A program made the translations under genes and the position numbers. The notes under the pieces were generated by a model, which saw only the letters and a program-made list of their open reading frames with translations, was not told the origin of the DNA and did no database searches. This document shows positions 11,181 to 16,185 of a DNA stretch of 64,000 nucleotides, piece by piece. Within the stretch, counting starts at the first letter, position 1; each line of letters begins with the position of its first letter. This stretch comes from an uncultured Bacteroidales bacterium (GTDB lineage: Bacteria > Bacteroidota > Bacteroidia > Bacteroidales > GCA-2748055), in the NCBI GenBank assembly GCA_963751705.1, contig CAVVVN010000001.1, forward strand, positions 493,329-557,328, read 5' to 3'.

Positions 11181-11244
11181 GTTGTTTCAATTTAGTGCAA
11201 ACATACAAAGATATACGCTTCAGGAAAAACCCCCGGAATGTTAT

Positions 11245-11252
11245 TATATTTG
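11245..11252 (+). promoter_or_regulatory. Bacteroidota-type -7 box TATATTTG upstream of lgt
   Basis: Exact match to TAnnTTTG, 26 nt upstream of ATG 11279. Confidence 0.4.
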
Positions 11253-11278: not shown

Positions 11279-12151
11279 ATGATTTTTGAAGCTATCACCT
11301 GGAATGTGGATCCCGAAATTTTCAGCATAGGACAGCTCAGTATCCGTTGGTACGGTTTGATGTTTGCTTCTGCCTTTCTGTCAGGCTACATTGTTTTTAC
11401 CAGATTTCTTGCTACCGAAAGGCTTAGCTCTGAAATGCTGGACCAATTACTGATCTACATTGCGGTAGGTACGGTTATCGGGGCAAGGCTGGGACATTGT
11501 TTTTTTTATGAACCGGACTATTTCCTGGCAAATCCTCTGGAAATTCTGAAAATCTGGAAGGGCGGACTTGCCAGCCATGGAGCAGCCATAGGAATTCCTC
11601 TCTCACTCTGGCTTTATATTCGTAAATATAAACTCTCTTTCCTCTGGCTCATTGATCGTATTGTCATTGTTGTAGCCCTGGGGGGAGCCTTCATTCGGCT
11701 GGGAAACCTGTTTAATTCCGAGATTTACGGGCTCCCGACCGATCTGCCCTGGGGCTTTGAATTTGTGCGCGACAGGCTGTATGACTCCAACACCGGAGAT
11801 CTGTTACCCACAGTCGCACGTCATCCCACTCAGCTCTATGAATCGCTCAGTTATATCCTGATATTTGTGGCTCTGTTTCTCTTTTACCGGAAAAGGTATA
11901 TGAAGGTTCGAGACGGATTTATATTTGGAGTGTTTATGATCCTTCTTTTTTCGGCCCGCTTTTTTATTGAATTCGTGAAAAACGATCAGGTTGCCTTCGA
12001 GGCCGGAATGCAATTTAATATGGGACAATTACTTAGCCTTCCGTTCATTATAGCGGGAGTAGTGATGATCGTGTGGACCGCTAAACGGCCCCGCCACTTC
12101 ACCCTGGAGCCTATTCCAAAAGCCCCGAAAAAAGGTCGAAAAGCTAGCTAA
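11279..12151 (+). CDS. lgt: prolipoprotein diacylglyceryl transferase
   Basis: [20 protein letters not shown] and [13 protein letters not shown]...PTQLYES motifs. Confidence 0.92.
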
Positions 12152-12162
12152 AAAGGTTCTTT

Positions 12163-12969
12163 ATGGAGACAGGTAATTTCTGGTTTGCATTTGGCCTCAC
12201 CTTGTTTGCCGGCTTATCAACGGGCATCGGAAGTGCACTGGCTTTTTTTACCAAAAGTACCAATACACGTTTTCTCTCCGTAAGTCTTGGTTTCTCAGCG
12301 GGAGTGATGGTATATGTCTCTTTTGTGGAGATTTTACAAAAAGCACGTATATCTCTGATCCCGGCGTATGGAGAAAAAATGGCCGCCTGGTATTCGGTGC
12401 TCGCTTTTTTTGCCGGAATCCTGGTCATCGCCCTGATCGACAAATTGATTCCTTCTCAGGAAAATCCTCATGAGATCAGGAAGGTTGAAGAGATGTCCAC
12501 AAACAATGTAAGAGATCCAAAGTTGGTGCGCATGGGGCTGTTTACAGCCCTGGCCATTGCCATACATAATTTCCCTGAGGGAATAGCTACCTTTATGGCC
12601 GGTCTCACCGATCCTACCCTGGCTATCCCCGTAGCCGTGGCTATCGCCGTTCACAATATTCCGGAAGGAATTGCTGTTTCTATCCCTATCTCCTATGGCA
12701 CAGGGAATAAGAAAAGGGGCTTTTTTCTTTCTTTTCTTTCCGGACTGGCCGAACCGATAGGTGCTCTGATCGCATGGCTGATTCTAATGCCCTTTATGGA
12801 CGGTAATCTCTTTGGGTTTATCTTTGCCGGTGTGGCAGGCATCATGGTGTTTATATCTATCGACGAGCTCTTACCTACGGCCCGGGAATATGGATTGCAT
12901 CATCATTCCATCTATGGCTTTGTGGCGGGAATGGCCATTATGGCACTTAGTCTATTACTGTTTATCTAG
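12163..12969 (+). CDS. zupT: ZIP-family divalent metal transporter ZupT
   Basis: Duplicated HNFPEGIA / HNIPEGIAV motifs and 8-TM-like hydrophobic pattern; starts 11 nt after lgt. Confidence 0.9.
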
Positions 12970-13899
12970 ATGGCGAAGAAAAAATATAAGCGTAAACACT
13001 CTCACCACCATCACGCAGTAAATGAAAAAAACCTGCTGACCGTCACCCTTCTGAACCTGGTAATTACGATTGTGGAGATTGCCGGGGGGGTTCTCTCTGG
13101 CAGCCTGGCCTTGCTCTCTGACGCTCTTCATAATCTAAGCGATACCTTCGCTACCTTTATTGCCTACCTGGCCACCATTGCGGGCAAGCGTGAGGCCAAT
13201 CAAAAAAAGACATTCGGGTACAAACGATTGGAAATTCTGGCCGCTCTGATCAATGCGGTGATCCTGATAGTCATAAGCTTCTTTCTGATTAAAGAGGCCT
13301 GGCACAGGTGGCAAAACCCAGGCACCATTAACTCTATGATCATGCTGGTTGTGGGAATGATCGGCCTTCTTGCCAATCTCTATGCGGTCCTCATCCTGAA
13401 AAAAGAGGCCAGCAAAAGTATCAATGTCAGAGCGGCCTACGTCCACCTGATCGCCGATAGCCTGTCTTCCGTGGTGGTAATCATCGGGGGGGTGCTGATT
13501 CGAATTTTTAAAATCGACTGGATCGACCCGGTCATCACCTTTATGATTTCCATATATATCATACGTTCAGGCTTCCTGATCCTTAATGAGTCAGTCAATA
13601 TACTGATGCAATCGGCCCCGGAACACCTGGACCTGAACAGTATTAAGAAAAAAGTTGAACAAGTGCCCGGGGTACTAAACCTGCATCATTTACATGCCTG
13701 GATGCTGACGGACCGGGAGATTCATCTGGAAGCTCATGTGGAGCTGAATACGGATATGAAGCTTAGTCATGTAAATCCCATCAGGCAACAAATCGAAGCA
13801 CTTCTGAAAGAAGATTTCGGCATCGGCCACATCACCCTGCAAATGGAGTTTAAAACTGAACATGATCCCCGGTTAATTCATGCCAGCCCTGACCGATGA
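12970..13899 (+). CDS. cation diffusion facilitator, CzcD/ZitB-like (HxxxD/HxxxD site, His-rich N-terminus)
   Basis: KHSHHHHA N-terminus, TM2 SDALHNLSD, TM5 VHLIADS and a C-terminal cytoplasmic domain. The ATG directly abuts the zupT TAG. Confidence 0.88.
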   Translation: MAKKKYKRKHSHHHHAVNEKNLLTVTLLNLVITIVEIAGGVLSGSLALLSDALHNLSDTFATFIAYLATIAGKREANQKKTFGYKRLEILAALINAVILIVISFFLIKEAWHRWQNPGTINSMIMLVVGMIGLLANLYAVLILKKEASKSINVRAAYVHLIADSLSSVVVIIGGVLIRIFKIDWIDPVITFMISIYIIRSGFLILNESVNILMQSAPEHLDLNSIKKKVEQVPGVLNLHHLHAWMLTDREIHLEAHVELNTDMKLSHVNPIRQQIEALLKEDFGIGHITLQMEFKTEHDPRLIHASPDR

Positions 13900-14831
13900 A
13901 GAGGGAGCAACATATCATCCGGGCCTCGTGGTGGTCCATTACAGGCAACACTCTGCTGGCTTTTTTGAAACTTTCCGCGGGGCTTATTTCTGGAAGTTTT
14001 GCGGTGATAGCCGATGGCATCGATTCTGTTTCTGATATTGTTTCTTCCCTGGTGGTCCTGATAGCTGCCCGAATCATTGCCAAACCTCCAAATATCAAAT
14101 TTCCCTATGGGTATAAAAAAGCTGACACGGTAGCTACTAAAGTTCTCTCATTTATGATCTTTTTTGCAGGGGCCCAGCTGGCCTACTCCACCGTAAAGCT
14201 TCTGATTCGGGGGGAGAGCATGGAGATTCCGGGAAACCTGGCCATCTGGATCACCGTGATTTCCATTGGCGGTAAATTTATTCTCTCGCTCCTGCTGTTC
14301 AAAACGGGTAAAAAAGTAGAGAGTACGATGCTTATGGCCAATGCCCGGAATATGCGAAATGATATATTTCTCTCCTTTAGTGTTCTCGCCAGCCTGGTCT
14401 TTACCATGATTCTCGAGGAACCCCTGATCGATCGCATCATTGCGCTTCTGATTAGCATTTTCATTATGTATGAAGGATTCCGGATCTTTATGAAATCCAA
14501 TATTGATCTGATGGATGGGATTGACAACACAGAGCTATACAAGCGCCTTTTCGAATCGATTCATCTGGTCAAGGGGGCCCATAATCCCCACCGGGTCAGA
14601 GCCCGAAAAATTGGGCATTACTACATGGTAAACCTGGATGTGGAGGTGGATCCGGAGCTGACCGTTAAAGAGGCTCATGAGATAGCCAAAAACGTGGAGA
14701 AAAGCATTAAATCGAATCTTCGAAATATTTACGACATCATGGTTCATGTGGAGCCCCTGGGCAACCGGGAAGAAGATGAAAAATACGGTATCACAGAAAC
14801 CGAGATTCAAAAAGAAAAAAGAAAAAAATGA
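13896..14831 (+). CDS. cation diffusion facilitator, FieF/YiiP-like with atypical DxxxD/NxxxD site
   Basis: TM2 ADGIDSVSD and TM5 ARNMRND. ATGA overlap with the upstream CDF gene. Confidence 0.82.
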   Translation: MKREQHIIRASWWSITGNTLLAFLKLSAGLISGSFAVIADGIDSVSDIVSSLVVLIAARIIAKPPNIKFPYGYKKADTVATKVLSFMIFFAGAQLAYSTVKLLIRGESMEIPGNLAIWITVISIGGKFILSLLLFKTGKKVESTMLMANARNMRNDIFLSFSVLASLVFTMILEEPLIDRIIALLISIFIMYEGFRIFMKSNIDLMDGIDNTELYKRLFESIHLVKGAHNPHRVRARKIGHYYMVNLDVEVDPELTVKEAHEIAKNVEKSIKSNLRNIYDIMVHVEPLGNREEDEKYGITETEIQKEKRKK

Positions 14832-15562
14832 TTACCAGGGATTGGCCCATGTATCGGGTGATACTTGAGAACCTGCAGTTGCTGCCTCTTTTACCTCGCT
14901 TCAACCTGAAACCTGGTTTCGGTGAGCTGAGCGTGGATGAGGTCTGCGAGGCTCATGGAGTGAATACGGAATTTTTCCTGGAAATTGCTAACGCCTATCT
15001 GGATGAATTGTATGTCCCCGAGGAGGGACTGGCCCTTTTTCCTCTGGGTACCATGGTGACTTACATTACCTCCACCCATACCTATTACAAAGAAATTGCC
15101 CTGCCCATGGTGGAAGAGAAACTAATGCGACTGATGGACCATTCTTCCCTGTCGGAGAAAGAAGTGACTCTGATACGTACTTTTTTCAATGACTACAAGG
15201 AAGATTTTATGGCCCATCTTTCCCAGGAGGAGGAACAAATTTTACCCTATGTGCTTGAACTTGAAAGACAGGCCTCCCTGGATAAGCCAGATCCTTTGTT
15301 CCTGGAAAAACTTCAGGCGTATTCCATCCGTGAATTTGAGAAGGAACATACTCGTTTGGAAACAAGCCTGAGTCATCTTTCTGAACTCATCATTAAATAC
15401 CTGCCTCCCTTTGACGATCTGCAACTGTGTCATCAGGTATTGAATGATCTGGCAAGCCTGATGAAAGACCTGGTCGATCATGCTGACATGGAAGATAAAG
15501 TGCTGATTCCCAGGGTTGCAAATCTTGAAAATCTCCTGCTAAACAGGTCGTCTATTTCATGA
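14828..15562 (+). CDS. hemerythrin-like (RIC/ScdA-type) di-iron domain protein
   Basis: Four-helix H/E pattern: YITSTHTYYKEIALP, FMAHLSQEEEQILP, EKEHTRLE, LVDHADMEDKVLIP. ATGA overlap with the upstream gene. Confidence 0.6.
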   Translation: MITRDWPMYRVILENLQLLPLLPRFNLKPGFGELSVDEVCEAHGVNTEFFLEIANAYLDELYVPEEGLALFPLGTMVTYITSTHTYYKEIALPMVEEKLMRLMDHSSLSEKEVTLIRTFFNDYKEDFMAHLSQEEEQILPYVLELERQASLDKPDPLFLEKLQAYSIREFEKEHTRLETSLSHLSELIIKYLPPFDDLQLCHQVLNDLASLMKDLVDHADMEDKVLIPRVANLENLLLNRSSIS

Positions 15563-16173
15563 GGTTTTCGGGTTTCATACTGGTTCTGGATTCCTATATC
15601 GTCCGAAAAGGGCTGATCTCCGTGCTAAACCGGATTCAGGGAGTCCGGGTGTTGAAAGAATTTAATGCGGCGGATCCTTTTCAGTCTTATCTGGAGGATC
15701 ACCCGGTTGATTTTATTATTATCAGCCAGTCGGCTTTCCGTCAGCGTACAGACCTGTTTATATCGAACCCTGAACTGCTGGAGAAAACTATCCTGCTGGA
15801 AGAACCCCAGGCAGATGATCAGTTGAAAACTAAGCCTGTGCAGGGAATTCCTGCTTCTATCCATCTGATGGAAAATAAAGAGGCCCTGAGCGCTAAAATT
15901 CAAAGCCTGCTGGACCATCGCTATTTTAAAGCTTCCGGGAATGAGCCCCTGGGTCTTTCACCCCGTGAAACTACCATTGTCAGACTGGTTTCCATGGGAC
16001 TCACAAACCGGCAAATTGCAGAAAAATTATTTCTGTCTGCCCATACCGTTATGACCCACCGGAAAAACATCAGCAGCAAGCTGGGAATTAAATCTGTTTC
16101 CGGACTAACCATCTATGCCATTGTAAATAACATTATCACCCTTGATGAGGTAAGCTCCTATCCTGCTAAGTAA
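15559..16173 (+). CDS. LuxR/NarL-type HTH regulator with degenerate (pseudo)receiver domain
   Basis: C-terminal LSPRETTIVRLVSMGLTNRQIAEKLFLSAHTVMTHRKNISSKLG. The N-terminal receiver-like fold lacks the acidic pocket and acceptor Asp (ILVLDS..., DFIIISQS). Confidence 0.8.
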   Translation: MRFSGFILVLDSYIVRKGLISVLNRIQGVRVLKEFNAADPFQSYLEDHPVDFIIISQSAFRQRTDLFISNPELLEKTILLEEPQADDQLKTKPVQGIPASIHLMENKEALSAKIQSLLDHRYFKASGNEPLGLSPRETTIVRLVSMGLTNRQIAEKLFLSAHTVMTHRKNISSKLGIKSVSGLTIYAIVNNIITLDEVSSYPAK

Positions 16174-16177
16174 TTCT

Positions 16178-16185
16178 TATATTTG
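16178..16185 (+). promoter_or_regulatory. -7 box TATATTTG upstream of the coiled-coil protein gene
   Basis: Exact TAnnTTTG, 21 nt upstream of ATG 16207. Confidence 0.4.

Follow-up and report, generated by a model that had tools for sequence, protein, structure and literature searches.

The LuxR-family regulator CdhR (PG1237) of Porphyromonas gingivalis, the community development and hemin regulator, is encoded next to PG1236, a hemerythrin-like hypothetical protein of 27.5 kDa (PMC11018363). The PG1236 and CdhR genes are induced by nitric oxide (NO), with 11.9-fold and 7.7-fold given as figures for "both genes," and a joint transcript was seen (PMC11018363). The known outputs of the pair are the hmu genes for hemin uptake, fimbrial and community genes, and NO tolerance (PMC11018363). 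Expression of hmuY was down about 10-fold in a CdhR mutant, 15- to 64-fold in a PG1236 mutant, and 18- to 27-fold in the double mutant (PMC11018363). In the literature, PG1236 is unclassified, is without an assigned role, and is not proposed as the sensor of CdhR. A flow-equilibrium model has been described for metal transport. It combines broad import with export of unwanted cations at the same time and is backed by isotope experiments (PMC11112998, PMC12632275). Here, we describe a locus in which a pair of the PG1236-CdhR type follows genes for a ZIP-family importer and two CDF exporters. It lies in a 64,000-nucleotide (nt) stretch of DNA, called the window below, from an uncultured Bacteroidales bacterium (GCA-2748055; assembly GCA_963751705.1, contig CAVVVN010000001.1, positions 493,329 to 557,328).

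Six genes on the same strand fill positions 11279 to 16173 of the window (Table 1). They are lgt, zupT, two CDF genes (cdf1 and cdf2), a gene for a hemerythrin-like protein (ricL), and a LuxR gene (cdhR-like). We read this six-gene unit as a hard-wired flow-equilibrium transport module combined with a CdhR-type two-protein regulator, with a probability of roughly 60%. The broad-range ZIP importer ZupT would admit divalent cations. The two CDF exporters, one of the Zn type (HD-HD) and one of the Mn/Fe type (DD-ND), would expel the excess, and flux control would lie mostly at the protein level. The RIC-fold di-iron protein would probably sense Fe(II), NO, or redox state and act on the LuxR-family protein, which combines a nonphosphorylatable receiver-like domain with a DNA-binding output. 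The regulator pair would be ancient. In this clade, the transporters would have come to lie beside it stepwise, before compaction into one string. We infer the sensor role, the direct contact within the pair, and the control of promoters by the pair from sequence comparisons.

Table 1. Coordinates of the genes and promoter-region features of the unit in the window
Feature	Position	Strand	Evidence
lgt, prolipoprotein diacylglyceryl transferase, first gene of the unit	11279..12151	+	PF01790, 253 bits; TIGR00544, 194 bits (cutoff, 119)
zupT, ZIP-family divalent metal importer	12163..12969	+	NF003243, 386.7 bits (cutoff, 252)
cdf1, CDF exporter 1, ZitB/CzcD-like	12970..13899	+	Cation_efflux and ZT_dimer domains; site motifs
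cdf2, CDF exporter 2, FieF/MamM-like	13896..14831	+	Cation_efflux and ZT_dimer domains; site motifs
ricL, RIC-like two-domain hemerythrin-type protein, PG1236 homolog	14828..15562	+	HHE domain, ligands, model, homology
cdhR-like, CdhR-type LuxR regulator, receiver-like N-domain and GerE helix-turn-helix	15559..16173	+	GerE domain, model, homology
Bacteroidetes-type -7 promoter box TATATTTG	11245..11252	+	27 nt 5' of the lgt ATG
Second TATATTTG promoter box	16178..16185	+	29 nt 5' of the coiled-coil gene (16207); likely downstream border of the unit
Conserved imperfect palindrome, CTTCAGG-N-CCCGGAATG type, candidate operator	11219..11243	.	Alignment of 24 related upstream regions

Gene coordinates and junctions were re-read from the raw sequence, and gene identities were assigned with profile searches. 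An earlier note on this DNA had described a unit of five genes, from zupT to the LuxR gene. All five of its identities hold. The junctions that it listed are present in the raw sequence: the TAG of zupT (12967-12969) lies directly against the next ATG (12970-12972), and ATGA stop/start overlaps occur at 13896-13899, 14828-14831, and 15559-15562. The start of zupT 11 nt past the end of lgt and the box before lgt were likewise confirmed. The unit is tightly packed, codirectional, and conserved, as the note had it, but it really contains six genes, with lgt, at which the note had hinted, in the first place. It is best described as six genes led by lgt because promoter boxes are conserved before lgt and after the LuxR gene and the window has no TAnnTTTG box on the plus strand from 12827 to 16177. 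The features of an operon are present at the sequence level: one strand, short conserved gaps, a conserved order, and no conserved internal promoter or terminator. The unit lgt-zupT-cdf1-cdf2-ricL-cdhR-like is conserved and is most likely transcribed from the lgt promoter, presumably as a single transcript. Its basal expression, at least, is likely constitutive because the essential gene lgt leads it.

Each protein was searched in 40 relatives, 24 of them from the same genus, and the coordinates were compared. A profile search of named genomes gave 80 loci, all from Bacteroidales or from Bacteroidota metagenome-assembled genomes (MAGs) except those of Marinifilum and Labilibaculum. The compared genomes and loci carry G and L numbers as labels, and G000 is the genome of the window. 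The five genes are adjacent and codirectional in 15 of the 24 same-genus genomes. In a sixteenth, the second CDF gene is split. The full array was found in about 22 of the 25 closest named MAG loci, in which the hemerythrin-like protein is 52 to 83% identical to that of the window. It consists of a divergent Big_5 gene, the order lgt-zupT-CDF-CDF-hemerythrin-LuxR, and a coiled-coil gene, so that the flanking neighbors are kept on both sides. The six-gene order occurs in about 40 related genomes and is kept over roughly 50% protein divergence. The five-gene order is thus conserved far beyond chance, and the chance juxtaposition that the earlier note had allowed for does not apply.

In 78 of the 80 loci across Bacteroidales, the LuxR gene directly follows the hemerythrin-like gene, usually with a 4-nt overlap. 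Judged from these loci, the pair, not the transporters, is the oldest conserved core of the locus. A P. gingivalis-type locus was fetched from a metagenome with a primer of PMC11018363. It encodes proteins of 236 and 199 amino acids (aa), and the genes overlap by 4 nt. The hemerythrin-like protein of the window is 33% identical to PG1236 (E, 2e-35), and the LuxR protein is 34% identical to CdhR (E, 1e-26). Because of these identities, the window pair is, by homology, a member of the PG1236-CdhR family. The two loci share the gene order, the 4-nt overlap, near-full-length identity, and similar protein sizes (236/199 versus 244/204 aa). They also share the same six His/Glu ligands, a non-Asp residue at the receiver Asp position, and a near-identical helix-turn-helix (HTH) signature. 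The P. gingivalis pair lies between epimerase and pseudouridine synthase genes and has no adjacent transporter, whereas the window pair ends a ZIP/CDF operon.

Fusions of the two proteins were searched for with the concatenated proteins as the query and a length filter that removes stand-alone proteins. More than 115 of the best 120 matches are natural Hemerythrin+GerE fusion proteins of 302 to 351 aa. Their sources include Alloprevotella, Prevotellamassilia, Culturomica, and many MAGs. The RIC-like module is complete in the fusions, with its six ligands, and the HTH signature is unchanged; the receiver-like domain is absent. A position of the RIC-like module beside the HTH is what the fusions predict. 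Long frames in G008 and G017 that matched the hemerythrin-like protein were rejected as fusions and are canonical RICs with the CC motif. The neighborhoods of 10 fusion genes were sampled, and 5 of these genes adjoin metal-uptake genes (2 ZIP, 2 imelysin/DHOR, and 1 TonB receptor plus HMA). A ZIP gene lies directly upstream in two of the sampled loci. Two sampled fusion genes are divergent from a porin-like/imelysin/DHOR cluster, and one is divergent from a TonB receptor gene and an HMA gene. Because of the fusions and the strict pairing, we argue that the PG1236-type protein is the input module of CdhR-type regulators. The earlier note had offered the hemerythrin-like protein and the pseudoreceiver LuxR protein as a control pair. 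The adjacency, the 4-nt overlap, the fusions, the PG1236-CdhR homology, and the published genetics support this idea, and the two very likely form such a pair.

The surroundings of the pair vary with phylogenetic distance. About 13 more distant loci have only CDF2 directly upstream of the pair, at a gap of 53 to 240 nt, and several of these have their own promoter boxes before the CDF gene and before the pair. Sister clades hold intermediate layouts, with lgt-zupT-(CDF1 or HMA-permease)-gpmA-CDF2 and then the pair. Because of these layouts, the compact string of the window appears to have arisen by stepwise recruitment and spacer loss.

The pair and the transporters could also be neighbors through compaction alone. 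In this case of genomic hitchhiking, the pair would respond to NO or redox state and act on unrelated genes, and the transporters would be expressed constitutively from the lgt promoter. CdhR of P. gingivalis acts on hmu, fimbrial, and community genes elsewhere, as such an account expects, and no transporter accompanies the pair in most distant loci or in P. gingivalis. The regulator pair is wholly absent in G011 and G004, which keep the transporters, and G038 has the pair but no ZIP or CDF. The sister clades with their own promoter boxes for cdf2 and the pair fit as well. Against hitchhiking stand the repeated placement of the pair, or its fused form, beside ZIP, CDF, imelysin/DHOR, TonB/HMA, and flavodoxin genes in different lineages and an arrangement kept over such protein divergence. 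We consider it unlikely.

The transport half of our reading begins with ZupT. Its match to NF003243 spans residues 4 to 267, and the Pfam Zip domain scored 99 bits. zupT is the sole ZIP gene detected in its genome (one match in the protein search of that genome). Both CDF proteins contain PF01545 and PF16916, and they scored 274 and 215 bits against TIGR01297 (cutoff, 82). Their metal sites were read with the motif rule of PMC10932157. CDF1 contains H54xxxD58 and H159xxxD163 (HxxxD in TM2 and TM5) and an N-terminal His run (H10 and H12-H15). Its site A is as in ZitB and CzcD, and it missed the cutoff of the ZitB equivalog NF002923 (221 bits versus 408). It is predicted to be a Zn-type CDF and not a ZitB equivalog. 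CDF2 contains D43xxxD47 and N152xxxD156, with all oxygen donors, like Mn-transporting CDFs. It missed the equivalog cutoffs of MamM (176 bits versus 350) and MntE (117 versus 500) and was below the FieF cutoffs (137 bits versus 420 and 108 versus 447). It is predicted to be of the Mn/Fe type. A MamB/MamM-like heterodimer of CDF1 and CDF2 was rejected, as either CDF occurs alone in some relatives. The genome has a third CDF gene elsewhere, likewise HD-HD.

Co-expression of an importer with exporters had been taken in the earlier note as a sign of a purpose other than homeostasis. This was not supported, as broad import with selective export is the published flow-equilibrium homeostasis (PMC11112998, PMC12632275). 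The note's option of a selectivity filter survives in that it equals the flow-equilibrium model, but it is therefore a form of homeostasis and not an alternative to it. In Cupriavidus metallidurans, as here, a broad ZupT importer works simultaneously with CDF-type exporters (PMC11112998, PMC12632275). The genes of C. metallidurans are scattered and are under the control of Zur, ZntR, and others, whereas those of the window form one operon with a housekeeping gene and their own candidate regulator. The Riemerella ZntR/ZupT paper was rejected as a parallel, since it concerns a different ZIP subfamily. The operon is a compact natural case of an importer and exporters in one unit, and it could be a model for the flow-equilibrium view outside Proteobacteria.

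The spacing of the genes bears on whether translation itself is coupled. In the operon-bearing clade, the lgt-zupT gap is 2 to 12 nt in most loci, and the zupT-CDF1 gap is 0 to 3 nt. The CDF1-CDF2 junction ranges from -4 to +15 nt, and the CDF2-hemerythrin junction is mostly from -4 to +3 nt. The hemerythrin-LuxR junction is exactly -4 nt in 24 of 26 clade loci. Tight junctions were also counted in the whole 5.2-Mb assembly with a crude gene call, which gave 2,892 codirectional pairs. Of these pairs, 7% overlap by 4 nt and 38% lie within -4 to +15 nt. The genome holds 15 runs of at least five consecutive tight junctions, and tight packing alone is ordinary.

Single genes of the unit are missing from some relatives. 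G018, G020, and L062 have no zupT. G010, L058, and L060 lack the second CDF gene, which is broken in G003 and L059. The hemerythrin-like gene is missing from the string in G024. The functions of zupT, cdf2, and the regulator genes are separable because each is lost in some relatives.

These observations bear on the proposal that overlap-coupled translation fixes the ratio of importer to exporters for a nonhomeostatic purpose. That purpose would be obligate exchange, a selectivity filter, or metal delivery to the periplasm or to exported (lipo)proteins. The stop/start overlaps and abutments are real, their tight spacing is conserved, and the exporters differ in predicted metal site. lgt, which makes lipoproteins, always heads the unit, and this fits delivery to exported (lipo)proteins. 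The overlaps between transporter genes nevertheless vary from -4 to +15 nt among relatives, and runs of tight junctions are common in the genome itself. Three relatives lack zupT, three lack cdf2, and sister clades lack cdf1, which does not point to an obligate complex. The filter idea amounts to standard flow-equilibrium homeostasis. The obligate coupling at fixed stoichiometry that the earlier note had drawn from the overlaps was not supported, given the different CDF sites (HD-HD versus DD-ND) and the losses of single genes. We judge the proposal quite improbable.

In our reading, the sensor candidate is the hemerythrin-like protein. It contains 244 aa and a Hemerythrin HHE domain by profile search. 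It missed the cutoff of the RIC model TIGR03652 (66.3 bits versus 204.7). Six di-iron ligands (H84, H130, E134, H174, H218, and E222) do not vary among 74 aligned family members. They align with H84, H129, E133, H160, H204, and E208 of YtfE and with those of canonical RIC. Channel glutamates corresponding to E125 and E159 are also kept. The DfCCgG Cys pair of the ScdA_N domain is missing; the protein reads PGFGEL, compared with DFCCGG in the canonical RIC of the same genome. An AlphaFold2 model of the protein (pLDDT, 89; pTM, 0.85) has the two-domain RIC fold. Its top 12 Foldseek matches in the PDB are all YtfE or Staphylococcus aureus RIC, with target-normalized TM-scores for the bundle of 0.73 to 0.74. 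Cys40 (14945-14947) is invariant and Cys201 (15428-15430) is nearly so in the 74 family members. These residues could be a redox- or NO-reactive feature.

The RIC-like protein resembles RIC/YtfE/ScdA (PMC9268430) in its two domains, four-helix bundle, six ligands, channel glutamates, and best Foldseek matches. It differs in that it is far under the family cutoff, lacks the DfCCgG Cys pair, and is always paired or fused with a LuxR HTH. Hemerythrin-domain iron or oxygen sensors include plant BTS (PMC12022348), and the mycobacterial hemerythrin-like protein MsmHr modulates SigF (PMC4295536). As proposed here, their di-iron four-helix bundle is a regulatory input and not an oxygen carrier. The bundle topology of the window protein differs, being of the RIC type, and its output is a LuxR HTH, compared with an E3 ligase or sigma-factor control in BTS and MsmHr. 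The RIC-like protein has no sequence relationship with these two beyond the HHE motif.

The LuxR protein contains 204 aa and no cysteine. Its sole profile match is the GerE/LuxR HTH (60 bits), and no Response_reg Pfam match was found. Its N-domain (residues 1 to 125) is predicted to be receiver-like, (beta-alpha)5. The predicted structure of the protein matches LiaR, RcsB, StyR, and FixJ from end to end (E, about 1e-9). The phosphoacceptor Asp at the end of strand 3 is missing. The residue is Ser56 here, and among 78 family members it is N in 35, S in 26, and D in 7. The HTH is near-invariant across the family. The protein shares a receiver-like domain and a GerE four-helix HTH with NarL/FixJ regulators and with the atypical VpsT and CsgD. 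Unlike NarL/FixJ regulators, the family has Asn or Ser at the acceptor position in 61 of 78 members. No kinase gene is adjacent here, and the partner is a di-iron protein and not a kinase or small ligand.

A rival view is that the hemerythrin-like protein is a plain RIC enzyme, for repair or iron donation, that guards Fe-S proteins when metal flux changes, with no sensor role and with an independent LuxR protein. This is very improbable. The conserved YtfE ligands and channel glutamates (E125 and E159) and the 12 RIC structures at the top of the Foldseek list fit it, but the score of 66 bits against a RIC cutoff of 205, the missing DfCCgG motif, the presence in the genome of another, canonical RIC whose NO-stress cluster includes norB-like, Rrf2, and katG genes, the fusion of the whole RIC-like module to the same HTH in more than 100 natural proteins, and the altered hmu transcription of the published PG1236 mutants stand against it.

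Metal sensing in Bacteroidales is poorly understood. CdhR has been studied for hemin uptake and community behavior, and the window data offer a concrete hypothesis for its input signal because of the near-constant RIC-fold partner, the many fusions, and the recurrence beside ZIP, CDF, and iron-uptake genes. A broader and more tentative idea, which we hold at somewhat less than even odds, is that CdhR-type systems are an unrecognized class of metal- or NO-responsive switch in Bacteroidales. In such a switch, a RIC-fold di-iron sensor would be fused to a LuxR HTH or would dock on a phosphorylation-dead receiver. In the clade of the window, it would lie at the end of the ZIP/CDF operon and feed back on it, and the operon would be a self-contained metal homeostat without need of a Fur, Zur, or MerR-type regulator.

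Several points weigh against our main reading. The metal specificities of the transporters are inferred from motifs. In many lineages, the pair occurs in nonmetal contexts, for example in about 22 loci after era, der, and a small lipoprotein gene. No metal gene lies near 5 of the 10 fusion genes sampled. In the published PG1236 mutant, polar effects on CdhR are possible. There are relatives that have lost zupT, cdf2, or regulator genes (either both or only the hemerythrin-like gene). TAnnTTTG boxes occur inside zupT and cdf1 in about half of the relatives and are possible internal promoters; they sit within conserved coding sequence of both genes. No operator in common with other lineages was found in the lgt promoter.

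The promoter evidence used here is the positional conservation of TAnnTTTG boxes across relatives, as their number over the entire window does not exceed chance (54 versus 46 expected). Conserved Bacteroidetes-type boxes are confined to two places. One lies 26 to 39 nt before lgt in nearly all related loci. The other follows the LuxR gene and is kept at about -29 before the coiled-coil gene in related loci. Scans for sigma-70 promoters and intrinsic terminators gave fewer matches than shuffled controls and were uninformative.

The palindrome before lgt reads CTTCAGGgg-AAA-ccCCCGGAATG. It lies exactly between two divergent -7 boxes, that of the Big_5 gene (11198-11213, minus strand) and that of lgt, and its geometry has a single occurrence in the genome. 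It is a possible operator; a link to the LuxR regulator could not be made. No motif in common with it was found in the regions upstream of the hemerythrin-like gene in distant loci. Both of its arms are changed in L050 and L063, and its loop is far longer in L057 and L060.

Other variants of the locus were observed. The broken second CDF gene (G003:C18:8803-9452 and L059:5339-5794) matches only residues 1 to 152 and 242 to 307 and is probably a pseudogene. The other genes of the string are intact there. In five sister-clade loci (L069, L071, L075, L077, and L079), a histidine-phosphatase-family gene, read as gpmA (cofactor-dependent phosphoglycerate mutase), lies between zupT or CDF1 and CDF2. 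Some of these loci also contain an ArsP_1 permease with a C-terminal HMA domain. The clade of the window has lost both the gpmA-type gene and the ArsP_1/HMA permease. No ZIP or CDF was detected in G002, an 82%-complete genome, which contains two hemerythrin-LuxR pairs in tandem on one contig (G002:C57:166-4812; L033). A long-chain flavodoxin gene lies directly 3' of the LuxR gene in four distant loci (L078, L090, L114, and L122). Flavodoxin is the classic low-iron stand-in for ferredoxin.

The separate canonical RIC, with an FCCGG motif, is encoded in a stress cluster about 50 kb upstream of the window (G000:C1:437768-446117). The cluster also contains a norB-like oxidoreductase, an Rrf2 regulator, a hemerythrin/PAS-type protein, katG, a Dps/ferritin-like gene, and a Fur-family gene. 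The genome encodes three Fur-family genes, at G000:C3:860124-860579 by purA/relA, at C1:440540-440902 by katG, and at C8:207920-208345 by a peroxiredoxin gene. No obvious Zur-type context with a zinc uptake system was found at any of the three.

An 18-bp palindrome, ATACC-N8-GGTAT, was rejected as a regulon marker here, as it is absent from the promoter of the window's operon and its eight exact copies in the genome are all inside open reading frames. It recurs in intergenic DNA at L134:4094, L137:3008, L078:7378, and L091:5593, with near-matches at L127:4854 and upstream of the PG1236-like gene in L143. Its positions are before ZIP genes beside fused regulators, before the flavodoxin gene after the pair, and after a cdf2 gene. 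For some CdhR-type regulators, it may be the operator.

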